The position numbers and the translations under genes are program-made. Below are positions 2,530 through 59,389 of a stretch of 64,000 nt of DNA, one piece after another (positions within the stretch are counted from its first letter, which is position 1; every line of letters starts with the position of its first letter). The notes under the pieces are model-generated. The model did no database searches, was not told the origin of the DNA, and saw nothing but the letters and a program-made list of their open reading frames with translations. The stretch is from Eledone cirrhosa (taxonomy: Eukaryota): contig OZ024758.1 of assembly GCA_964016885.1 (NCBI GenBank), positions 14,260,001 to 14,324,000 of the forward strand. The letters are read 5' to 3'.

Positions 2530-5500
2530 GACCATGCTGTAAAATGGAGGGGTAGAGAGGGCCCTTGAGTCTAGTAAGACATCCTCTCTAGTGCTGGTGG
2601 CACAAATAAAAGCACCCAGTCCATGCTGTAAAGTGGCGCTGGTGTTAGGAAGGGCATCCAACCAGTGTATCAATGCCAAAAAGCTTATCAGCACAGCAAC
2701 AAAACAGCATAGAAAAATATGAAGACGTCGCATCTCAGAGTTGCAACACTTAATGTTGGCACTCTCAGAGGTAGGTCTGCTGAAATAGCGGAGATGCTGG
2801 AGAGAAGGCAGGTGGATGTGTGCTGCGTGCAAGAGGTGAGATGGAGGGGTGCCTCTGCGAGACTAGTCGTAGGCAAGCGTCTTAGCTATAAGCTATTCTG
2901 GGTAGGTAAGGATAATGGGTTAGGGGGAGTAGGCCTTTTCCTGGCTGAGAAATGGATCAATAAGACAATAGAGGTAGTTCGAGTTAGTAATCGAATAATT
3001 AAGCTTAGATTAGTTGTAGGTAGGAGACTACTGACAATCATCTCGGTCTATGCTCCCCAAGCAGGCCTAGGCAAAGATGAGAAAGACTGCTTTTATGAGC
3101 AACTTTTGCAAACAACCACAATGACAGAGGACGGAGACATCGTTATGCTAGCAGGAGACTTCAATGGTCATGTTGGACAGCTCCAGGATGGTTACACTGG
3201 GGTACATGGTGGGCACGGTTACGGTTCAAGAAATGAAGAAGGAGTGAGACTTCTTGAATTTTGTGATGCAAGTACATTGACTATTTGCAACACAAACTTC
3301 CAGAAACCTGCCAATCACCTAATAACCTACAAATCTGGTGAGCACATAAGCCAGATTGACTTCCTGCTAGTTAGGCAGCGGGACAGGCAGATAGTGTCTA
3401 ATACCAAGGCATACCCTGGGGAAGAATGTACCCCACAGCATAGGTTAGTTGTTAGTGATATCTCAGTAAGCAAGAGATGGAATGAGACATATAGGAAGGT
3501 GTGGAGAAGAAAGGTCTGGAAGCTAAAAGACCTTTCACTAAAATTCAAATTTAGGAAAGCCCTTCAAGATGTATATGACGAAAAAGAAGACGATTTAGAG
3601 ACGTATGACATAGATAATAACTGGAAGTTCTTACGTGACAACTTGCTGAAGGCTACTGATGAAACCTGTGGCTGGAGCAGAGCTCCAACCAGACAGAGAG
3701 TGACCTGGTGGTGGAACAGCAGTGTAGATAAGGCTATTAGAGACAAAAGACTAGCATGGAAGGCTTGGAATAAGGGTGGGAGTAGGGAAGAATATACAGC
3801 CACTAAGAGAGAAGCTAGACGTCAGGTGTACTTAGCACGCAGGGAGGCAGAGAGTAGGAGGTTTGCCAATGTTCTGCGACGGGAAGATCAGAGGCGTGCG
3901 GTGTTCCACATTGCAAGGCAGTGTGTCAATGCAAATCAGGATGTTGTTGGTGATAAATGTGTCCGGGATGATGCCGGTGTACTTAGTGTCACGAATGACC
4001 AGAAAAAGGAGGCCTGGAAATGTCATTATGAGAGACTGATGAATGTGGAGAACGAATGGGAGAGAGAGAAATTACCCTTGGTAGATCCGACAGAGGGACC
4101 AGCTATTGAGATTGACGAATATAGGGTCCAAGAGGCGATTAGGGAAATGAAAAATGGTAAGGCGGCCGGACCATCGGGAATAGTTGCTGAGATGCTGAAG
4201 GCATCAGGGGACGTAGGCACTAAACTGGTTGCACGCATAATCAATCAGGCTATATATGGTGGTGTCGTACCCAAAGACTGGTGCAGCAGTATTCTCATAA
4301 ATTGCTACAAAGGTAAAGGGGATGCTTTGGAGAGGAGCAATTATAGGGGTATAAAACTGATAGATCAGGTTATGAAAGTGGCAGAAAGGATTTTAGCACA
4401 ACTAATTAGAGAAAGGGTCAAACTAGATGAGATGCAGTTTGGTTTTGTGCCTGGGAAGAGTACAACAGATGCCCTCTTCTTGGTGAGACAAATGCAAGAG
4501 AGGTTCTTAGAGAAGAATAAGCCACTATACTTAGCCTTTGTTGACCTAGAGAAGGCCTTTGATAGGGTACCCCGATCTGTCATCTGGTGGTCCCTAAGGA
4601 AGCTGGGTGTTGAGGAATGGCTTGTAAGGACAGTGCAAACTTTGTACAGAGGTACTCTCAGTAAAGTCAGGGTAGGAATGGAGTTTAGTGAGGAATTCCA
4701 GATACAAGTAGGAGTACATCAGGGTTCGGTCCTCAGCCCGCTCTTGTTCATTATAGTCCTCCAAGCCATAACAGAGGAGTTTAAGACTGGCTGTCCATGG
4801 GAACTTCTCTATGCTGACGATCTGGCTCTTATGGCAGAATCAGTAGAGGAGCTAGAGAATAAATTCCGGCTATGGAAACAGCAGTTGGAAGCAAGAGGAC
4901 TGAGAGTAAATCTAGCTAAGACAAAAGTGTTGAGTAGAAAAGAGGACAAAACCCTGATTCCGTCAGGGAAATGGCCATGTTCGATATGCAGAAAAGGAAC
5001 TGGCATAAATTCTATAAAATGCACACAATGTAGGTCCTGGGTACACAAGAGATGTAGCGGGATAGCAGGCAAACTAACAGGTAGGGAGAAATATGTATGC
5101 AGTAGATGTACAGGGAAATTAGACAGTAGAAGTCGCACTGATAGACACATTTTTCAAATGCGAGAGGGCGCTATAGAAGTGGTGGATAGCTTCCGGTACC
5201 TAGATCAGATTAGCATGGGAGGAGGGTGTTCCGAGGCCATAGTATCAAGAATAAGGACGGGTTGGAAGAAGTTTAGGGAGCCGCTTCCTCTGTTGACGAA
5301 GAAGGGTTTCTCCCTGCGTACGAAAGGCCGGTTGTATGATGCCTGTGTGAGGAGCGCGATGCTGCATGGTAGTGAGACATGGGCAGCTACCGCAGAAGAT
5401 ATGCGACGGCTGGAGAGAAATGAGGCAAGCATGCTCCGTTGGATGTGCAGTGTAAATGTGCGTGAACGACCCAGCATAAATGTGTTGAGAGAGAAACTGT

Positions 5501-5801
5501 GTCTGAGAGGGATAGAATGTAGTGTACGGGAGAGGAGACTGAGGTGGTATGGACATGTGATGCGCATGGAGGATGACCGATGGGTGAAGAAGTGCCAGGA
5601 AATGCCAGTTGAAGGAAGACGTGGTAGAGGTAGACCACGAAAAACATGGGCGGAGGTGGTGAGAACAGACCTCAGATCATTGAAGCTCACGGTGGAGATG
5701 ACGAGGGACCGTGACGAGTGGAGAGATGCTGTGCTGAATAAGACCCGTCCCACCCTTGCGAGCAGGGGAGGGCGGACGTAAAATGATGATGATGATGATG
5801 T
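2530..5801 (+). mobile_element. Near full-length RTE LINE with (GAT)n tail
   Basis: Single ORF, ~190-nt 5'UTR, stop codon followed by gatgatgat; no TSD recognised, 5' boundary approximate. Confidence 0.9.
2719..5781 (+). CDS. RTE-clade LINE ORF: APE endonuclease + reverse transcriptase with PHD-like zinc finger
   Basis: 1020-aa open ORF; APE motifs (ATLNV, CVQE, VYAPQ, GDFNGHVG, IDF, QHRLV); RT motifs (QFGF, FVDLEKAFD, GVHQGSVLSPLLF, YADD); RTE C-terminus RRLRWYGHVMRM, RGRGRPRKTW. Confidence 0.96.
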   Translation: MKTSHLRVATLNVGTLRGRSAEIAEMLERRQVDVCCVQEVRWRGASARLVVGKRLSYKLFWVGKDNGLGGVGLFLAEKWINKTIEVVRVSNRIIKLRLVVGRRLLTIISVYAPQAGLGKDEKDCFYEQLLQTTTMTEDGDIVMLAGDFNGHVGQLQDGYTGVHGGHGYGSRNEEGVRLLEFCDASTLTICNTNFQKPANHLITYKSGEHISQIDFLLVRQRDRQIVSNTKAYPGEECTPQHRLVVSDISVSKRWNETYRKVWRRKVWKLKDLSLKFKFRKALQDVYDEKEDDLETYDIDNNWKFLRDNLLKATDETCGWSRAPTRQRVTWWWNSSVDKAIRDKRLAWKAWNKGGSREEYTATKREARRQVYLARREAESRRFANVLRREDQRRAVFHIARQCVNANQDVVGDKCVRDDAGVLSVTNDQKKEAWKCHYERLMNVENEWEREKLPLVDPTEGPAIEIDEYRVQEAIREMKNGKAAGPSGIVAEMLKASGDVGTKLVARIINQAIYGGVVPKDWCSSILINCYKGKGDALERSNYRGIKLIDQVMKVAERILAQLIRERVKLDEMQFGFVPGKSTTDALFLVRQMQERFLEKNKPLYLAFVDLEKAFDRVPRSVIWWSLRKLGVEEWLVRTVQTLYRGTLSKVRVGMEFSEEFQIQVGVHQGSVLSPLLFIIVLQAITEEFKTGCPWELLYADDLALMAESVEELENKFRLWKQQLEARGLRVNLAKTKVLSRKEDKTLIPSGKWPCSICRKGTGINSIKCTQCRSWVHKRCSGIAGKLTGREKYVCSRCTGKLDSRSRTDRHIFQMREGAIEVVDSFRYLDQISMGGGCSEAIVSRIRTGWKKFREPLPLLTKKGFSLRTKGRLYDACVRSAMLHGSETWAATAEDMRRLERNEASMLRWMCSVNVRERPSINVLREKLCLRGIECSVRERRLRWYGHVMRMEDDRWVKKCQEMPVEGRRGRGRPRKTWAEVVRTDLRSLKLTVEMTRDRDEWRDAVLNKTRPTLASRGGRT

Positions 5802-7293
5802 GCATGTATATATATATATATTTTTTTATTTTTATGTTAGAATCGTCTAACTTCGCGAAACCATGGGTAATGGAATAATTATATTGTGTTGTTTATTTCA
5901 TAATGAAATAGCTCTGTATTATACACAGAGCACTCTTCTTTCTTTTACCTTTACCATGGAAATACTTATATATACACACACACCTACCTTTATTTTTTTT
6001 TCATATTTGAAAACGACTTATTCTACATATATGTATACATATATACACACAGAGAAGCTAAAAGTGCTAGAGAGAAAAACTAATTTTCTTATCATTGATT
6101 TGAATATCATTTCTTAATTAGAAAGAAACTATAAAATGCCAAACATGATATGAACAGTAATTTGGTTTCCACTGGTAAAATATTGATTTTATTTTATTAT
6201 TATATTCAGCAAAAGGTAAAAGGTAAATTTTGTGAAGGTTACAATGTAGATTTATTAATTTTAAAGATGAAGTTATACAAATTCAAACCCAGTGTCACTA
6301 AAAGTGGGGTTTGCGAAAAAAATTCTGGGGTTCTGCAACGTAAAGTGTACTTTAATAAAATTCAATAAAAATTATATATATTAACACTTAACATTTAATA
6401 TTCTATCATACTATTTCATTATGATACCATTATAAATTCTAAAGGATTGTAAATAAAACAAGTAAATCAGACAAAGTTGGAATTCCTTTTATTAATATAA
6501 TCTTCTATACACAATCATACACACCCGTGTATATTTATCTATCTATATATCTATATGATGGCTGCCAACTCGTTTTCGAGTACGGCCACTACTTTATATC
6601 CTACCGATGCGCTGAACGAGTGTGACTTTTTAGTCCAGCCAGCGACTTGAAAACTCTGGTACAAACACTACACTTGTGACAATTATTGACACATAGTGCT
6701 GGGCCCATGGTACCATGTGACGACAAGTGCAGAGAGATCTCCAGATATAAAGCAATGCCTGTGCCGTGAAGCTTTTATAGTGAGCAAAGGCACTGCACAA
6801 AGCCAGTCCCACTCTCTTAACCAAGATGATATTTACCAAAAAGAAGAACAAGTCAACATCATTGGATACCATCAGGGTTGCAGGTGTTATATCAGAGTTT
6901 TCCATATAATAATTGTTTCTACTTTTAGCACAAGGCCAGCAATTATCCAGTGTATTACTGGTACTTTATTTTATCGACCTCGTAAGGATGAAAGGCAAAG
7001 TTAACCTCGCCGGGATTTGAACTCAGATCATAAAGGGACGTAACTATGCTTCAAAGCATGGTGTCCGACTCTACAGATACTGCCAATCCACCGCCTATAT
7101 ATACAAATAATAATATTTCTACTTTTGGTACAAGGCCAGCAATTACACCAGTGCATTACCGGTGCTTTATTTTATCGACCCCACAAGGACGAAAGGCAAA
7201 GTTAACGTCAGTGGATTCAAACTCTGAACGTAAAGGGTCATAACTCTATGCTGCAAAGTATGGTGTCTGACGCTCTACCGATACTGCCAAACC

Positions 7294-18720: not shown

Positions 18721-19899
18721 TATATATGTATGTATATATATATATACATATATGTATATTTGTATGCTGTATGTATTTGGTTTTGTTTTTAATTATGAAA
18801 AGAGAGAGAAAGAGAGGGTGAGAGAGATATGAAATAAATTATGATTGTACTATTTAAATGTTTATATGTGTGTATTAGAGGAGATCTTACTTCTTACTTT
18901 TCTATGGTTAGACTACTTCAGTTCCAAAGGTCAACTATATAGACTGACCATTTTCTGGAATAGTTAACACAAGCTCACTTGATAATTACATTCAGCAGTA
19001 TAAGAATCATTTTATAAATCTGTCCTTAGTATTGTCCATAGGTCATTTTTGCTGACCTTTGTTGGATGAATATAACAAAGCTTGTAGAATTTATTTTTTT
19101 TCCACCATACATCCTCTCTCTAACCCTTTAGCATTTAAATAATAATAATAATAATGAAATTATTGTGTACAGTGCTCAGGTGCACTACAACTCATCAAAG
19201 GTGCATGTATAGTACATAGAATAATGTACAAACTGGCCGTATCCGGCCAGAATTCTCTCACCCCTTTCTGTTAAAACTGGTTGTAATCGGCCACTCATAC
19301 TTATGTTAAGGTATTGTTCTCAAAATAAATAGTATCAAAGTCTCATAGATTTGATATTATGTGAGATAATTATGTAAGATATTGTGAGATATTATTTGAG
19401 ATATGAGATAATTATGTAAGATATTGTGAGATATTATATGAGATAATAATGTAAGATATTGTGAGATATTATGTGAGATATTGTGAGATAATTATGTGAG
19501 GTAAAGCCTTTACCATATAAATATAATAGTAAATATAGAGTAATGTAAATGTTAAAGGGTTAAACATCTCTCTTACGTCTTTTTTTACTGATTTTCTTCC
19601 CCAATTTATGTTATACTGACCTACAACTGTTATTTTGTTTCTATTTCTACATGGTTAATAGATCTGTTAGAAATAACAGCCAAATCTCCCACGTTCCGTT
19701 TCTACATCATTTGCTTTCAATATGTTATGTATTCAATTTTCATTAATTGAATCATCATAATCATCATCATCACCTGTAAATCAGGCCAGGGTTTTTACAG
19801 CTGGATACCCTACCTAACACCAACCACATTTGCAGTGTGGAACTGGATGGCATTGTTATGAAGAGGGACAGGCCAGTTGGCCACGTTGAACCTTTCTCA

Positions 19900-22800
19900 C
19901 AGTGGAACCATAGTTTTGGAGCCTGTAACTGGATGGCACAGCTATGAGGAGGGACCAAACCCATCACTCAGCGGAACCATAGTTTTGGAGCCTGTAACTG
20001 GATGGCACAGCTATGAGGAGGGACCAAACCCATCACTCAGCGGAACCATAGTTTTGGAGCCTGTAACTGGATGGCACAGCTATGAGGAGGGACCAAACCC
20101 ATCACTCAGCGGAACCATAGTTTTGGAGCCTGTAACTGGATGGCACAGTTATAAGGAGGGACCAAACCCATCACTCAGCGGAACCACAGTTTTGGAGCCT
20201 GTAACTGGATGGCACTGTTATAAGGAGGGACCAAACCCATCACTCAGCGGAACCATAGTTTTGGAGCCTGTAACTGGATGGCACTGTTATAAGGAGGGAC
20301 CAAACCCATCACTCAGCGGAACCATAGTTTTGGAGCCTGTAACTGGATGGCACTGTTATAAGGAGGGACCAAACCCATCACTCAGCGGAACCATAGTTTT
20401 GGAGCCTGTAACTGGATGGCACTGTTATAAGGAGGGACCAAACCCATCACTCAGCGGAACCATAGTTTTGGAGCCTGTAACTGGATGGCACAGCTATGAG
20501 GAGGGACCAAACCCATCACTCAGCGGAACCATAGTTTTGGAGCCTGTAACTGGATGGCACAGCTATGAGGAGGGACCAAACCCATCACTCAGCGGAACCA
20601 TAGTTTTGGAGCCTGTAACTGGATGGCACTGTTATAAGGAGGGACCAAACCCATCACTCAGCGGAACCATAGTTTTGGAGCCTGTAACTGGATGGCACAG
20701 CTATGAGGAGGGACCAAACCCATCACTCAGCGGAACCATAGTTTTGGAGCCTGTAACTGGATGGCACTGTTATAAGGAGGGACCAAACCCATCACTCAGC
20801 GGAACCATAGTTTTGGAGCCTGTAACTGGATGGCACAGCTATGAGGAGGGACCAAACCCATCACTCAGCGGAACCATAGTTTTGGAGCCTGTAACTGGAT
20901 GGCACTGTTATAAGGAGGGACCAAACCCATCACTCAGCGGAACCATAGTTTTGGAGCCTGTAACTGGATGGCACTGTTATAAGGAGGGACCAAACCCATC
21001 ACTCAGCGGAACCATAGTTTTGGAGCCTGTAACTGGATGGCACAGCTATGAGGAGGGACCAAACCCATCACTCAGCGGAACCATAGTTTTGGAGCCTGTA
21101 ACTGGATGGCACAGCTATGAGGAGGGACCAAACCCATCACTCAGCGGAACCATAGTTTTGGAGCCTGTAACTGGATGGCACTGTTATAAGGAGGGACCAA
21201 ACCCATCACTCAGCGGAACCATAGTTTTGGAGCCTGTAACTGGATGGCACAGCTATGAGGAGGGACCAAACCCATCACTCAGCGGAACCATAGTTTTGGA
21301 GCCTGTAACTGGATGGCACTGTTATAAGGAGGGACCAAACCCATCACTCAGCGGAACCATAGTTTTGGAGCCTGTAACTGGATGGCACTGTTATAAGGAG
21401 GGACCAAACCCATCACTCAGCGGAACCATAGTTTTGGAGCCTGTAACTGGATGGCACTGTTATAAGGAGGGACCAAACCCATCACTCAGCGGAACCATAG
21501 TTTTGGAGCCTGTAACTGGATGGCACAGCTATGAGGAGGGACCAAACCCATCACTCAGCGGAACCATAGTTTTGGAGCCTGTAACTGGATGGCACTGTTA
21601 TAAGGAGGGACCAAACCCATCACTCAGCGGAAGCATAGTTTTGGAGCCTGTAACTGGATGGCACTGTTATAAGGAGGGACCAAACCCATCACTCAGCGGA
21701 ACCATAGTTTTGGAGCCTGTAACTGGATGGCACAGCTATGAGGAGGGACCAAACCCATCACTCAGCGGAACCATAGTTTTGGAGCCTGTAACTGGATGGC
21801 ACTGTTATAAGGAGGGACCAAACCCATCACTCAGCGGAAGCATAGTTTTGGAGCCTGTAACTGGATGGCACTGTTATAAGGAGGGACCAAACCCATCACT
21901 CAGCGGAAGCATAGTTTTGGAGCCTGTAACTGGATGGCACTGTTATAAGGAGGGACCAAACCCATCACTCAGCGGAACCATAGTTTTGGAGCCTGTAACT
22001 GGATGGCACTGTTATAAGGAGGGACCAAACCCATCACTCAGCGGAAGCATAGTTTTGGAGCCTGTAACTGGATGGCACTGTTATAAGGAGGGACCAAACC
22101 CATCACTCAGCGGAACCATAGTTTTGGAGCCTGTAACTGGATGGCACAGCTATGAGGAGGGACCAAACCCATCACTCAGCGGAACCATAGTTTTGGAGCC
22201 TGTAACTGGATGGCACTGTTATAAGGAGGGACCAAACCCATCACTCAGCGGAAGCATAGTTTTGGAGCCTGTAACTGGATGGCACTGTTATAAGGAGGGA
22301 CCAAACCCATCACTCAGCGGAACCATAGTTTTGGAGCCTGTAACTGGATGGCACTGTTATAAGGAGGGACCAAACCCATCACTCAGCGGAACCATAGTTT
22401 TGGAGCCTGTAACTGGATGGCACTGTTATAAGGAGGGACCAAACCCATCACTCAGCGGAACCATAGTTTTGGAGCCTGTAACTGGATGGCACTGTTATAA
22501 GGAGGGACCAAACCCATCACTCAGCGGAACCATAGTTTTGGAGCCTGTAACTGGATGGCACAGCTATAAGGAGGGACCAAACCCATCACTCAGCGGAACC
22601 ACAGTTTTGGAGCCTGTAACTGGATGGCACTGTTATAAGGAGGGACCAAACCCATCACTCAGCGGAACCATAGTTTTGGAGCCTGTAACTGGATGGCACT
22701 GTTATAAGGAGGGACCAAACCCATCACTCAGCGGAACCATAGTTTTGGAGCCTGTAACTGGATGGCACTGTTATAAGGAGGGACCAAACCCATCACTCAG

Positions 22801-24030
22801 CGGAACCACAGTTTTGGAGCCTGTAACTGGATGGCACTGTTATAAGGAGGGACCAAACCCATCACTCAGCGGAACCATAGTTTTGGAGCCTGTAACTGGA
22901 TGGCACTGTTATAAGGAGGGACCAAACCCATCACTCAGCGGAACCATAGTTTTGGAGCCTGTAACTGGATGGCACTGTTATAAGGAGGGACCAAACCCAT
23001 CACTCAGCGGAACCATAGTTTTGGAGCCTGTAACTGGATGGCACTGTTATAAGGAGGGACCAAACCCATCACTCAGCGGAACCACAGTTTTGGAGCCTGT
23101 AACTGGATGGCACTGTTATAAGGAGGGACCAAACCCATCACTCAGCGGAACCACAGTTTTGGAGCCTGTAACTGGATGGCACTGTTATAAGGAGGGACCA
23201 AACCCATCACTCAGCGGAACCATAGTTTTGGAGCCTGTAACTGGATGGCACTGTTATAAGGAGGGACCAAACCCATCACTCAGCGGAACCATAGTTTTGG
23301 AGCCTGTAACTGGATGGCACTGTTATAAGGAGGGACCAAACCCATCACTCAGCGGAACCACAGTTTTGGAGCCTGTAACTGGATGGCACTGTTATAAGGA
23401 GGGACCAAACCCATCACTCAGCGGAACCACAGTTTTGGAGCCTGTAACTGGATGGCACTGTTATAAGGAGGGACCAAACCCATCACTCAGCGGAACCATA
23501 GTTTTGGAGCCTGTAACTGGATGGCACTGTTATAAGGAGGGACCAAACCCATCACTCAGCGGAACCATAGTTTTGGAGCCTGTAACTGGATGGCACTGTT
23601 ATAAGGAGGGACCAAACCCATCACTCAGCGGAACCATAGTTTTGGAGCCTGTAACTGGATGGCACTGTTATAAGGAGGGACCAAACCCATCACTCAGCGG
23701 AACCATAGTTTTGGAGCCTGTAACTGGATGGCACTGTTATAAGGAGGGACCAAACCCATCACTCAGCGGAACCATAGTTTTGGAGCCTGTAACTGGATGG
23801 CACAGCTATGAGGAGGGACCAAACCCATCACTCAGCGGAACCATAGTTTTGGAGCCTGTAACTGGATGGCAGAGCTATGAGGAGGGACCAAACCCATCAC
23901 TCAGCGGAACCATAGTTTTGGAGCCTGTAACTGGATGGCACAGCTATGAGGAGGGACCAAACCCATCACTCAGCGGAACCATAGTTTTGGAGCCTGTAAC
24001 TGGATGGCACCACTATGAAGAGGGGCAGAC
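19900..24030. repeat. 69-bp minisatellite, about 60 copies
   Basis: Unit ggaaccatagttttggagcctgtaactggatggcac(agc/tgt)tat(g/a)aggagggaccaaacccatcactcagc; period 69 (19912 to 19981). Confidence 0.97.
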
Positions 24031-24409
24031 TAGTTGGCCACCCCGACGCTCTGAACCCTTCTCACGGTGAGATACAAAATATTAATACAGTAAACATGCC
24101 ACATGGCCACATCCATCAGACCTAATGTAGGATATTTAAATGTTTCTTTCAAATCAACTGACAGAGTTGAGTTGCTTGAGTGAGGTAAATGTTGCTGTAT
24201 TTAGTGCAATCAGTCACATACTGACCTTTAAAGATTGCCATGTTGTGCCCTTCTGTATTCAAATACTGACAACTGATTGAGCAGGATTGTGTCAACTATA
24301 CCACCCAACTCTTCACTTTTAAAGAAAACATTATTCTGTTAAATGTCTAAAAGCTTGAGATGAGTTATTGTTAATACAATCATGTTGTTTAGTATTGTTA
24401 ACTGTTGTG

Positions 24410-43230: not shown

Positions 43231-43265
<35 letters not shown>

Positions 43266-43271
<6 letters not shown>

Positions 43272-43427
43272 TGTAATAAACAACATAAGATAATTAATTC
43301 ATTTACCAGTGGTTTCTTGAAGACATATTTATATTTGTCTTCAGTCGACTGAAGACAGATATAAATATGTCTTCAAGAAACCACTGGTAAATGAATTAAT
43401 TATCTTATGTTGTTTATTACATAACTA
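43266..43427. repeat. Palindrome with 81-bp arms and no loop; probable Penelope-like terminus
   Basis: Centre gtc|gac at 43346/43347; contains ctgaaga...gaaaccactggta. Confidence 0.9.
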
Positions 43428-43770
43428 AAAAGCTCTGTAGCCTACATAGAGCACTCTCTTTTCCTTTACCTTTCCTACGGAAACACTTCATATATATATA
43501 TATATATATATTCAGGTTTGAGGTTTACCACTGGATAGAGCTGGATCCAGCCTCCTGTCATTTCATTATAATATATATATTAAAGGGCGATGGATTGGCA
43601 GTATCGGTAGAGGGTCGGACGCCATGCTTTCCAGCATAGTTACGTCCCTTTACGATCTGAGTTCAAATCCCGCCGAGGTTGACTTTGCCTTTCATCCTTA
43701 CGGGGTCGATAAAATAAAGTACCAGTAATGCACTGGGTAATTGCTGGCCTTGTGCCTAAAGTAGAAACAA

Positions 43771-43803
<33 letters not shown>

Positions 43804-43877
43804 ATGGACAAATTTGAACAGGAACAAAACAAAATGTTTATTAATTTCACGCTCTGGAGAGTGGGGTGGTGGTGGGG

Positions 43878-43912
43878 AACGATGTTTCGGGCATAAGCCC
43901 TTCCTCAGGTGA
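43878..43912 (-). ncRNA. Hammerhead ribozyme-like core
   Basis: CUGAGGA-A-gggc(uuau)gccc-GAAAC-auc-GUU; stem I not evident. Confidence 0.55.
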
Positions 43913-44034
43913 GAAGTGTGTGGGAACAGAGTTCAAAGGGTGTGTAGGGGAGTGGTGGAGAGACATATAGCGAAAGAAAACGGTGCGAATGAAATTAAAA
44001 ATAAAAATAAAGCATGATCAAAATACAAGGAATG

Positions 44035-53133: not shown

Positions 53134-54140
53134 CTAGCCGAATTACCCGTGCCTTGCTGATTGATTTTAATTAAGTGATATAATTTATGGAGAAAAACTC
53201 TGCATTTCAATATTACTCAATGTAAAATGTAATCAAAAATTGGAAAACATTAGTTTTTGTAATATATCAAATCAAAATTACATTATTAAATCTTATTCTT
53301 ATTTTGTTTCTTGTAAATAATTTTTTTCAAAATATCAATTCAAAACTTGATCATTTCATTTTTGTGTATAGCATTATTTTCAAATTAGAAATTCAAAGTT
53401 TAATTATTTATTTTTTAACATAATAAATACATGAAAATATATTTCATACTTTGTCCTAATGAAGAACTTCAGGGTAAACAACATTTCTTGTCTTTCTTTG
53501 ATTGGCTAAAATGTAGAGATTTTTTGAAGTTCCTGTCTTTGAAATAGCCATATAAAACATGCCATGACTGAAACATGGGTTTGTCAGATCTATAACAATC
53601 GTTTTGAAAGTTTGATCTTGACTTATTGATACGCATGGCAAAGCATGGCTTCACTGGGAACTGCAGTCTCTTAAATGTAAAAGGCAACTCGCTATCACTT
53701 GGTATAAGTGGAATCCTCGGAATGAGAAGAGCTTGACCTTTGTAAGCCCCAAATATAATGGTTGCTTCAATCAAGTTCTCATTCAATCTTGTTACAACAC
53801 ATCTTGTTCCATTTATTGGCCAAAATTTTCACTATAGGGGGTTTAACCCCCATTAGAGTGTCTTAATATTATTGAAATTTACTGATATTTTGTGAATAGG
53901 CATCATATCTTATCATTTACCTATCGTTTAAATTCATATAAATCGAAGGGAAAAAATTTTCAGCAGGTGTTTGTGCCCCCGGGGAACCCGTTGATTAAAA
54001 TGAAATATATTTATCCAAGTACCCTGGGCAATGTAGTTTCAGAATATATATGGTTTTGGAGGTCTATCTCCAAAACCATAGGAGGAGTTCGTGAACAAAC
54101 AAAAAAACAGACAGGAACTACAACTTTATATATATAGAGA
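53134..54140 (-). mobile_element. Non-autonomous Helitron with PIF1 helicase C-terminal remnant
   Basis: 5' TC at 54140, 3' CTAG at 53134, inserted between A and T with no TSD; LIPRIPLIPSDSELPFTFKRLQFPVKPCFAM.INKS, CFSHG, RNVVYPEVL. Confidence 0.92.
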
Positions 54141-54239
54141 TTGTATTTTCACAGTAAACATTTTATCTCACATAATATTCAATCTATGAGATTTAGATAT
54201 TATTTATTTTGAGAACAATACCTTAACATAAATACGAGC

Positions 54240-54750
54240 AGCTGGTTACAGCCAGTTTGAACAGAAAGAGGTGAGAGAATTCTGGCCAGTTTCAGCTGGT
54301 TTGAACAGAAAGAGGTGAGAGAATTCTGGCCAGTTACAGCTGGTTTGAACAGAAAAAGATGAGAGAATTTTGGCCGGTTACAGCTGGTTTGAACAGAAAG
54401 AGGTGAGAGAATTCTGGCTGGTTACAGCTGGTTTGAACAGAAAGAGGTGAGAGAATTCTGGCCGGTTACAGCTGGTTTGAACAGAAAGAGGTGAGAGAAT
54501 TCTGGTCGGTTACAGCTGGTTTGAACAGAAAGAGGTGAGAGAATTCTGGCCGGTTACAGCTGGTTTAAACAGAAAGAGGTGAGAGAATTCTGGCCGGTTA
54601 CAGCTGGTTTGAACAGAAAGAGGTGAGAGAATTCTGGCCGGTTACAGCTGGTTTGAACAGAACAGAAAGAGGTGAGAGAATTCTGGCCGGTTACAGCTGG
54701 TTTGAACAGAAAGAGGTGAGAGAATTCTGGCCGGATACGGCTGGTTTAAA
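54240..54750. repeat. 44-bp tandem array inside the TTAA MITE
   Basis: Unit gctggtttgaacagaaagaggtgagagaattctggccggttaca, about 11 copies. Confidence 0.92.
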
Positions 54751-55105
54751 AACTACGTAAATCTCATTGAAAGCTAGTTTACAGCCTGGTTCTTTTTGTA
54801 TGAATTGGACGGTGTGTTAATGAAAATAGTTGGTTCATGAAAAAGTTATGACTGTTTTTTTCTTCCCTTCCCCAGATACTTTTTTGAGTTACTTGGTCCA
54901 AGATTAAAATCTCATCACAGCTAATCCTGTCCCAGTGCAGTCAATATGATTGTAATATAACTTCCTTTGATTAACAGGATAATATATACCCTCTGCCCTG
55001 TTATTTTAAAGCTAAATACCCCAAGAAAGAAATGACCTACCCTGAAAATAGAAAATATATGAAATTGCAGACCCATTGGTACCATGGTGACCATATGCAT
55101 AAAGA

Positions 55106-55137
<32 letters not shown>

Positions 55138-55153
55138 TACATACATATACATA

Positions 55154-55200
<47 letters not shown>

Positions 55201-55358
55201 TTAGTTATACTATTTATGGTTATGTAAATACAAAACCTTATGCAGTTATAAGTATTTTACATACACCCTAAATAGTGGTAGGCAGTAATGTATTACTACC
55301 TTATTACCAGTAAGTTAAGTAGCTCAATGTAAAAACATCAGATGATTTACAGAGCAGT

Positions 55359-55752
55359 TATATGAAATATAAGAATCAAAGAACTGTTCAAAACATTATT
55401 GTGCTTACAGCTGTTTCCTCCAAACCGAGGTTTGGATTCTTCGGAGCAATTTATTAATGCATGGACAGTTATATGACCTCCTTTTCAGCCGAGAGACATA
55501 CCGATACATATTCAAACATTGTGGGTCAACATTCATTACAGAATTTAGAGTGTACTGCCACTCTAAATTCTGTAATGAATGTTGACCCACAATGTTTGAA
55601 TATGTATCGGTATGTCTCTCGGCTGAAAAGGAGGTCATATAACTGTCCATGCATTAATAAATTGCTCCGAAGAATCCAAACCTCGGTTTGGAGGAAACAG
55701 CTGTAAGCACAATAATGTTTTGAACAGTTCTTTGATTCTTATATTTCATATA
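55359..55752. repeat. Apparently perfect inverted repeat, 194-bp arms with 6-nt loop; probable Penelope-like terminus
   Basis: Arms 55359-55552 and 55559-55752; ORF track gives the same peptide on both strands except at the loop. Confidence 0.93.
55663..55709 (+). ncRNA. Hammerhead ribozyme-like motif (mirror copy at 55402-55448 on the minus strand)
   Basis: ugcu-CCGAAGA-a-uccaaacc(uc)gguuugga-g-GAAA-c(agcu)g-UA-agca; palindromic stem III, U4C core variant. Confidence 0.55.
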
Positions 55753-55784
<32 letters not shown>

Positions 55785-56047
55785 CACACACACACTGCAC
55801 CTCCTACATTGAGGTCCTATGTGTCAAGTGGTATCAAAAACAGTAACAATAACCACCTATATTAATGTGCATGTATAAATAACGATATATATACTACACC
55901 ACCTACATCAATGTATGTATAAAGAATAATATATATATATATATACTGATCCACTTTACATTAACATAGTCTTCATAACAAAAGTGAGGTTACATGGACC
56001 ATCTCCTATTCTCTAATAATGAAAGGCACTGATTTGGGGTGTTTAAA

Positions 56048-56185
56048 TCACAACTCATCATGAAATTGTGCAGCTTTTAGAAACCATTCTTCGTAGACTT
56101 TCTTGGGATCAATCATCCAGTGTTTGTGGAAGGAAATCGGATCCTGGAGTTCCAGTAGTTTTTTGCTATAATCGTTGGGTCTTGC
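56048..56185 (-). CDS. B3GLCT: B3GLCT terminal coding exon ending in HDEL
   Basis: aaacag acceptor; ARPNDYSKKLLELQDPISFHKHWMIDPKKVYEEWFLKAAQFHDEL then TGA. Confidence 0.94.
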   Translation of the reverse strand, partial: ARPNDYSKKLLELQDPISFHKHWMIDPKKVYEEWFLKAAQFHDEL

Positions 56186-58762: not shown

Positions 58763-59389
58763 CTGTAATAATCACCAATAAAGAAATTATTATTATACAA
58801 CTGGAGGCACATGGCTTAGTGGTTAGAGCATTGGGCTTGCAATCGAAAGGTTGTGAGTTCAATTCTCAGACCGGGTGATGTGTTGTTTCCTTGAGCAAGA
58901 CACTTTATTTCACATTGCTCCAGTTTACTCAGCTGTAGAAATGAGATGATAGGACTGCATCCTTTAAAACCCTCATGCTTCCCGAAATTCGCCAAAACTA
59001 CACCTGATGTACCCCTTCCATACACATGCACACATGTATATATCATGACTCATACACTGTTCATTTTCCTGACGTTTGTACATTACCCTATGTACTATAC
59101 ATACACTTTTTGATGAGTTGTAGTGCACCTGAGCACTGTACACAATATTTTCATTATTATTTCATCAACACTAGGTCATCTGCATACAATAACTACCATG
59201 GTAAATCCTCCTTTACACTTCAGGCGGGTAGATCACATGTTTTCATACCCAGAGTTACTCAGCATAAACTGGCAGAGCTCTAAGCACACTTGATGTACCC
59301 AAAGGTTTGAAAGATGGAACACACACACATACATACACACACACACACATACATACACATAAACATGTTAGGTTAAAATCCTTGCTTAC

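Follow-up and report, generated by a model that had tools for sequence, protein, structure and literature searches.

What is the long, perfect hairpin that lies shortly behind the octopus gene B3GLCT, how did it come to be there, and what would it do to the mRNA of this gene if it were transcribed? In the window, by which we mean the whole 64-kb stretch of DNA that was analysed, the last coding exon of B3GLCT occupies positions 56048-56185 of the minus strand and ends with HDEL followed by TGA. This assignment follows from translation, homology and the exon chain: the exon shows 93% identity over 45 amino acids to the Octopus bimaculoides beta-1,3-glucosyltransferase, seven tblastn pieces of the O. 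bimaculoides protein follow one another in order between 62975 and 56051 (minus strand), and a Fringe domain is found in the preceding exon. A tRNA-like Rfam match (31 bits) at 58812-58869 of the plus strand, inside a B3GLCT intron, is probably the head of a SINE.

The initial annotation had reported a perfect 194-bp hairpin past the B3GLCT stop, and this was confirmed, with a gap of 295 nt between the stop and the nearer arm. The distal arm (55359-55552) carries the element in sense orientation on the gene strand, and the proximal arm (55559-55752) carries it in sense on the plus strand and thus antisense in B3GLCT read-through RNA. The arms of 194 nt each are 100% complementary and are separated by a loop of 6 nt (55553-55558), and the full stem is predicted to fold at -351 kcal/mol. 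Only two perfect non-microsatellite inverted repeats with arms of at least 20 nt and spacers of at most 60 nt are present in the 64 kb, and the hairpin is the longer one; its arm matches nothing in the window except itself and its mirror copy. As the arms show 0 differences in 194 positions (95% upper bound of divergence 1.5%), either the insertion is young or the arms have later been homogenised; assembly polishing could be another source of the perfect identity.

To place this sequence in a wider context, public contigs from four of 23 runs (X1, X3, X5 and X6) were aligned to positions 55200-55590. Contigs matching the arm and the adjoining sequence numbered 837 in X1, 56 in X3, 17 in X5 and 4 in X6; the observations that follow concern 28 listed contigs and 22 listed loose ends (890 and 63 more lie outside these listings), and are not to be read as genome-wide proportions. 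The hairpin belongs to a repeat family of high copy number. The element also runs 161 nt past the distal arm, to 55198, an extension that the initial annotation had missed. This one-sided tail (55198-55358, minus strand) is represented by family contigs in all four runs, many diverged contigs cover both the arm and the extension (55358-55198), and two contigs, X5 record 17 and X6 record 25, join arm to tail (242 and 250 nt, with 4 other letters each). The insertion can thus be delimited to 55198-55752, located between TA runs and extended on one side only. A (GT)n(TA)n microsatellite at 55753-55796 abuts the proximal arm and a (TA)n(CA)n microsatellite occupies 55154-55197; these probably represent the upstream and downstream halves of the target site, respectively. 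Thirteen contigs (11 from X1 and 2 from X3) stop matching at 55359 and continue into TA-rich letters, which identifies 55359 as a recurrent family end beside microsatellites. TA runs of at least 12 nt are common here, with 51 in the 64-kb window. No orthologous empty site was seen among the listed contigs, and a target-site duplication is unreadable inside TA runs. A 55-nt direct repeat of 82% similarity surrounds the TA runs that flank the insertion (55914-55968 and 55094-55147), and may reflect chance or an older duplication.

Several further features of the contigs concern the extent and distribution of the family. X3 record 11 extends 876 nt past 55200, so the parent element may be longer on the tail side too, or this extension may alternatively be the flank of another copy. 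None of the three X3 contigs that cover 55242-55269 is identical to the tail in the window; the contigs show presence only, and the X3 sample may be one without the insertion. In X5 and X6, which bear other organism labels, the element occurs at 98-100% identity and low depth; it could come from related species or from trace DNA, and no horizontal transfer is claimed. Exact-pattern scans of two metagenome, one viral and one prokaryote collection returned 0 loci.

The centre of the hairpin records how the second arm began. Among the listed contigs, four (from X3, X5 and X6) contain the six loop letters and then continue as non-palindromic sequence for 60-504 nt, five X1 contigs show the same non-palindromic junction from the opposite side, and in one, X3 record 16 (depth 2, 10 other letters), the loop is followed by a second arm. 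Loose ends gather at the same place, behind 55552 in X3, X5 and X6 and before 55550 in X1. The family sequence at the loop, when compared by eye, contains a natural micro-hairpin in which the loop is closed by GTG/CAC pairing, with a mismatch at the fourth position and two further pairs behind it (5 of 6 possible); the 3-bp match that closes the loop in the window is thus native to the family. The copy in the window agrees with the family in the three loop-closing letters, after which it turns into the mirror of its own arm, which indicates that it is 5'-truncated and that its second arm starts at the 3-nt fold-back match. At 55502, an 18-nt tandem duplication is present in contigs of X3, X5 and X6 and absent from both arms in the window, as is consistent with a single donor for both.

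We consider the insertion to be the 5'-truncated, head-to-head end of a Penelope-like element (PLE), comprising a pseudo-LTR (pLTR) and a minimal hammerhead ribozyme (min-HHR) motif, which landed in a TA microsatellite and which, if transcribed, would mask its own AATAAA and hammerhead motif; the probability of this reading is about 0.8. PLEs have been described with pLTRs measuring 193-218 bp, a second, inverted pLTR next to them and, optionally, a tail on one side (Arkhipova et al. 2013, PMC3846280), and the same account interprets palindromic inverted junctions as products of self-priming, head-to-head being the most frequent arrangement (PMC3846280). Inverted 5'-truncated copies, tails and a preference for (TA)n are likewise described by Craig et al. 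2021 (PMC8557442), and a further account has both target strands cut and extended, the tail being the stretch between two internal start sites of reverse transcription (PMC11167929). The locus agrees with the insertion unit of endonuclease-bearing (EN+) PLEs, as presented in these descriptions, in its arms of about 200 nt, its head-to-head orientation with a palindromic junction, its tail on one side and its AT-rich or (TA)n target (PMC3846280, PMC8557442). In the window the inverted 5'-truncated copy indeed meets its partner head to head at a palindromic junction, and the microsatellite target is apparent from the TA runs on both sides and from the 13 TA-rich family contig ends. In contrast to the published units, the octopus copy is an end module without an ORF, and its tail measures 161 nt rather than 30-40 nt (PMC3846280, PMC8557442).

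No reverse transcriptase or GIY-YIG ORF of the parent was seen in the sequence analysed; family contigs with extensions of 504 and 876 nt exist. Since no parent ORF was recovered and published tails are shorter, membership in the PLEs is assigned on architecture. The open frame within the arm (52-64 aa) has no homologue and belongs to no Pfam family; its only phmmer match is P0001 (E 1.6e-4), a single-member, tandemly repetitive protein. A GIY-YIG C-terminus was considered for this frame and rejected on these grounds, and the frame, having no meaningful homologue, was treated as non-coding. P0001 is unnamed and shares with the arm frame the QTSVW peptide encoded by the helix II palindrome; it may be a spurious ORF that covers a related array of repeats. 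Animal non-LTR retrozymes offer another comparison, being likewise non-coding, equipped with a type I hammerhead and proposed to derive from pLTRs, and differing in that they form head-to-tail tandem arrays whereas the octopus locus is a single head-to-head pair (bioRxiv 10.64898/2026.07.22.740005). Membership in this group was rejected, since within the window the arm has no match besides its own mirror copy, and head-to-tail units are absent.

The proposed course of events would be as follows. Reverse transcription would have been primed from the TA run and begun inside the element RNA; the cDNA would have stopped just past the natural micro-hairpin, where the 3-nt GTG/CAC match may have permitted fold-back and self-priming. 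Alternatively, the cDNA may have joined a second cDNA primed on the other target strand and started 161 nt further 3'. The outcome would be two identical arms with the 161-nt tail on one side only, in which the hammerhead and the AATAAA are probably passengers. The hairpin is most likely an ordinary, young, single-event stub of a Penelope-like insertion.

The hammerhead-like motif deserves separate treatment, as the initial annotation had placed one directly after the AATAAA (55448-55402). Such a motif of minimal type I is present at 55402-55448 of the minus strand, with its core at 55444 and a predicted cut after 55406, and it has a mirror copy in the proximal arm on the plus strand (core at 55667, predicted cut after 55705). 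Its first half consists of a 4-bp helix I, a CCGAAGA core with the U4C change, one unpaired A and a helix II of 7-8 bp; its second half contains one extra G, GAAA, an 8-nt palindromic helix III and a GUA cut triplet. A double hammerhead is the minimum-energy structure when two copies are cofolded (-35.1 kcal/mol). A descriptor, which was composed after the motif had been seen, matches only the two arm copies in the 64 kb and none of 20,000 shuffled arms. Searches with Rfam detected no hammerhead in the window at the gathering score, nor in the distal arm at E values up to 10.

Metazoan PLE min-HHRs are characterised by a helix II of 7-8 bp, a helix I of 4-5 bp, an unpaired nucleotide and a palindromic helix III, and they also occur as opposite-strand pairs 100-700 bp apart (Cervera and de la Pena 2014, PMC4209133). 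The octopus motif shows the corresponding helix lengths (4 bp for helix I, 7-8 bp for helix II), the unpaired base at position 9.1, 5' of helix II, and a palindromic helix III that favours a dimer fold, and its two copies occupy opposite strands at a distance of a few hundred bases (PMC4209133). It differs from these ribozymes in U4C, in the lack of the G10.1-C11.1 pair, which is called highly conserved in PLE min-HHRs, and in the extra G before G12 (PMC4209133). The first pair of helix II is U-A, or an A.G apposition, and the canonical core CUGANGA...GAAA...UH with G10.1-C11.1 is departed from (U4C, the missing pair and the extra G). U4C is a known natural hammerhead variant with much reduced activity in vitro (PMC3088659), and in the tested min-HHR case reported the monomer showed no cleavage and dimers showed low cleavage (PMC4209133); the published min-HHRs are described as weak or dependent on the protein of the element (PMC4209133, PMC11167929). 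By its letters the motif is therefore classed as hammerhead-like rather than as a canonical member, and self-cleavage is only putative. None of the 37 listed variant places (at least 5% of depth, four runs) falls within 55402-55449, and the odd core is accordingly the majority state of the family rather than a product of decay in the copy at hand. No special conservation of the motif is claimed, as another 48-nt tile, 55344-55391, also has 0 listed variants.

A second structure of the same layout is found at 43266-43427, where two 81-nt arms with one mismatch meet head to head at a GTCGAC centre. It contains hammerhead-like CTGAAGA...GAAA cores that start right at the centre, with a TA run on one side and, on the other, a 62-nt tail (to 43489) followed by a TA run. 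The two elements belong to different families, and both carry GCTCTGTA just past the arm end. A single-arm relative of the 43-kb family, of 80% identity and with the same tail end before a TA/CA run, lies at 5851-5974. The existence of a second palindrome of this layout suggests that such structures are ordinary in this genome. Rfam searches at 43250-43950 revealed no hammerhead, only generic hairpin matches below the gathering score. A lone core resembling a minimal hammerhead, with an unpaired A and a 4-bp G-C helix II and without a clear helix I, was observed at 43908 of the minus strand. Other features of the window include a 1,022-aa open frame at 2713-5778 (plus strand), which we take to resemble the endonuclease/reverse transcriptase ORF of a LINE, a 119-aa frame at 53472-53828 (minus strand) presumably similar to the C-terminus of a PIF1/Helitron helicase and without a Pfam match, and a 1,402-codon open frame at 19862-24067 (plus strand) that is made of a long tandem repeat.

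Two other origins of the hairpin have to be weighed. A palindromic non-autonomous DNA element of the MITE or foldback type, which moves as a ready-made hairpin, would account for the perfect short inverted structure, the TA target and the high copy number, and X3 record 16 suggests the same centre in another copy or sample. Such an element is expected to end in symmetric terminal inverted repeats, whereas the ends here are asymmetric, with the 161-nt tail on one side; the listed contigs that reach the centre mostly continue into non-palindromic sequence, and the arms carry a hammerhead motif of retroelement type. We give this origin little credence. A fold-back artefact of the library or the assembly, or polishing that erased differences between the arms, would explain the 100% arm identity, and no listed X1 contig spans the loop; fold-back artefacts likewise arise at micro-hairpins. 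Yet the mirror stops exactly at the recurrent family end, the two flanks are unlike each other and one of them holds the intact gene, the contig X3 record 16 from another sample crosses the loop into a second arm, and the other palindrome of the same layout in the window has one mismatch. An artefact is thus very improbable. In the part of the open literature that was searched, nothing was found on hammerhead-bearing Penelope palindromes in octopus.

Returning to the probable Penelope-like insertion, its consequences for B3GLCT depend on where the mRNA ends. On the gene strand the first AATAAA past the stop is at 55455 and no ATTAAA precedes it, as the initial annotation had stated. The stretch from stop to hairpin without a canonical hexamer is near chance expectation, since 8,275 of 12,742 tiles of 293 nt in the window also have neither AATAAA nor ATTAAA. 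AATATA variants are found on the gene strand at 55863 and 55745; the former (55858-55863) is the sole listed polyA-like candidate in the stretch from the stop region to the insertion. Folding predicts partial opening of this hexamer (unpaired probability 0.45-0.73), and GT/T-rich letters follow it directly. Past the insertion, a candidate host polyA region at 54095-54208 contains the hexamers AATAAA (54208), GATAAA (54167), AATACA (54147) and TATAAA (54130), followed by a U/GU-rich tract, and the downstream windows of the 54167 and 54147 candidates contain 50-54% T. A 44-bp tandem array (54153-54750) stands between the insertion and this region.

The initial annotation had further proposed that the AATAAA of the distal arm (55450-55455) could be a polyA signal supplied by a transposon. 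The transposon origin is upheld by the family contigs and the PLE-type architecture; the supply of a polyA signal is not. If the element did donate a working signal at 55455, the mRNA would stop within the distal arm and carry a 3'-terminal stem of about 100-120 bp. This outcome would profit from the fact that 55455 is the first canonical hexamer past the stop, and the hexamer is predicted to be open (unpaired probability 0.83-0.90) whenever the proximal arm is unavailable for pairing. With both arms present, the predicted unpaired probability of AAUAAA is 0.002; during emergence of the RNA it is 0.10 at first and 0.002 from 20 nt later. These folding values are equilibrium predictions, and CPSF loading, bound proteins or unwinding by ADAR could alter access. 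The window 20-65 nt downstream of 55455 contains 26% T, a diverged subfamily is changed at 55450, 55452 and 55453, i.e. in 3 of the 6 letters of the hexamer, and an AATAAA on one strand is common in itself, being present in 2,148 of 6,381 tiles of 194 nt in the window. A GTAAG splice-donor-like motif at 55408 of the minus strand, which overlaps the predicted cut site of the hammerhead, also bears on the question, as in HIV-1 a splice donor downstream represses the polyA site upstream of it (PMC2645353). Because of the predicted occlusion, the poor downstream element and the subfamily changes, a donated polyA signal is rejected as a likely outcome, and we regard it as quite improbable. The folding predictions suggest instead that in read-through RNA the stem would hide, rather than supply, the AATAAA and the ribozyme motif; the core of the hammerhead has a predicted unpaired probability of 0.000 with both arms versus 0.74-0.86 without the proximal arm. 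A precedent is described for HIV-1, where a hairpin masks AAUAAA from CPSF (PMC2645353). The two cases are alike in having AAUAAA within a stem and a donor-like motif downstream, and unlike in that the HIV-1 hairpin is finely balanced whereas the octopus stem, at -351 kcal/mol, would be an off state, so the comparison is an analogy only (PMC2645353).

With the donated signal set aside, two possible 3' ends are left for B3GLCT: one before the insertion, at AATATA 55863, and one beyond it, in which case the hairpin would be part of the 3'UTR. The earlier end presumes the same Penelope-like origin and a mature mRNA that stops before the insertion at a non-canonical signal such as 55863, so that the hairpin exists only in discarded nascent RNA; it thus competes with read-through and not with the proposed origin. 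The partly open hexamer and its GT/T-rich surroundings favour it, whereas the window from +20 to +65 contains only 26% T, in contrast to the 50-54% T after 54167 and 54147. This end may well be the one in use, with a chance somewhat short of one half, and the odds that the mature mRNA reads through the hairpin are about even. Read-through RNA would form the full 194-bp duplex and become a target of ADAR, and it would likely pass the buried AATAAA and end further on, the best candidate being at about 54210-54100.

The general point made by the initial annotation, that ADAR acts on long perfect stems and that cephalopods edit heavily, is in agreement with Porath et al. 2017, in which octopus is reported to stand out by an exceptionally strong hyper-editing signal and to have a large share of near-perfect dsRNA (PMC5625713). 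The same report describes massively edited Penelope repeats in a lizard (PMC5625713), and young repeats are presented elsewhere as the main ADAR targets across animals (PMC9989829). The hyper-edited Harbinger repeats of Xenopus and Penelope repeats of the lizard resemble the octopus hairpin in that they fold on themselves, span a few hundred bases and have a short loop; they differ in that editing was reported there, whereas the octopus locus is known here from its DNA letters (PMC5625713). None of the 23 listed runs is on record as RNA, X3 included; the small size of X3 and its word share of 0.63 suggest that it may be an RNA run. Its variants show no excess of the changes expected from editing, with 2 A>G and 4 T>C among 30 places, each T>C recurring in other runs. 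X3 record 13 (55357-55508) is a gapless contig of 152 nt with 26 other letters and a depth of 5.09, over a stretch with 47 plus-strand T; by depth arithmetic it appears to share three of the four T>C changes listed within its range and none of the six determinable other variants. It is possibly a hyper-edited molecule of the family, or else a diverged copy, and it is not assignable to the 55-kb locus.

Penelope-like retrotransposition is known to leave structures of this kind behind, and the value of the locus is that of a test case. At its junction the fold-back point can be linked with a micro-hairpin of the parent sequence, and the U4C hammerhead, a variant found family-wide, is available for assay. 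The most far-reaching scenario, in which B3GLCT mRNA reads through a young and possibly polymorphic fold-back, would place in the 3'UTR a hyper-edited 194-bp stem open to ADAR and Dicer that buries AAUAAA and the ribozyme and alters export, stability or the 3' end allele by allele; taken as a whole, this is unlikely. If the insertion segregates, carriers and non-carriers would provide a natural allele pair for the effect of a long stem on an mRNA, which would be useful in an animal with very high ADAR activity and of modest value as an ADAR test locus. If the scenario is true and fold-backs are common, as two in 64 kb might indicate, such insertions could be a major source of the dsRNA load and hyper-editing in octopus.
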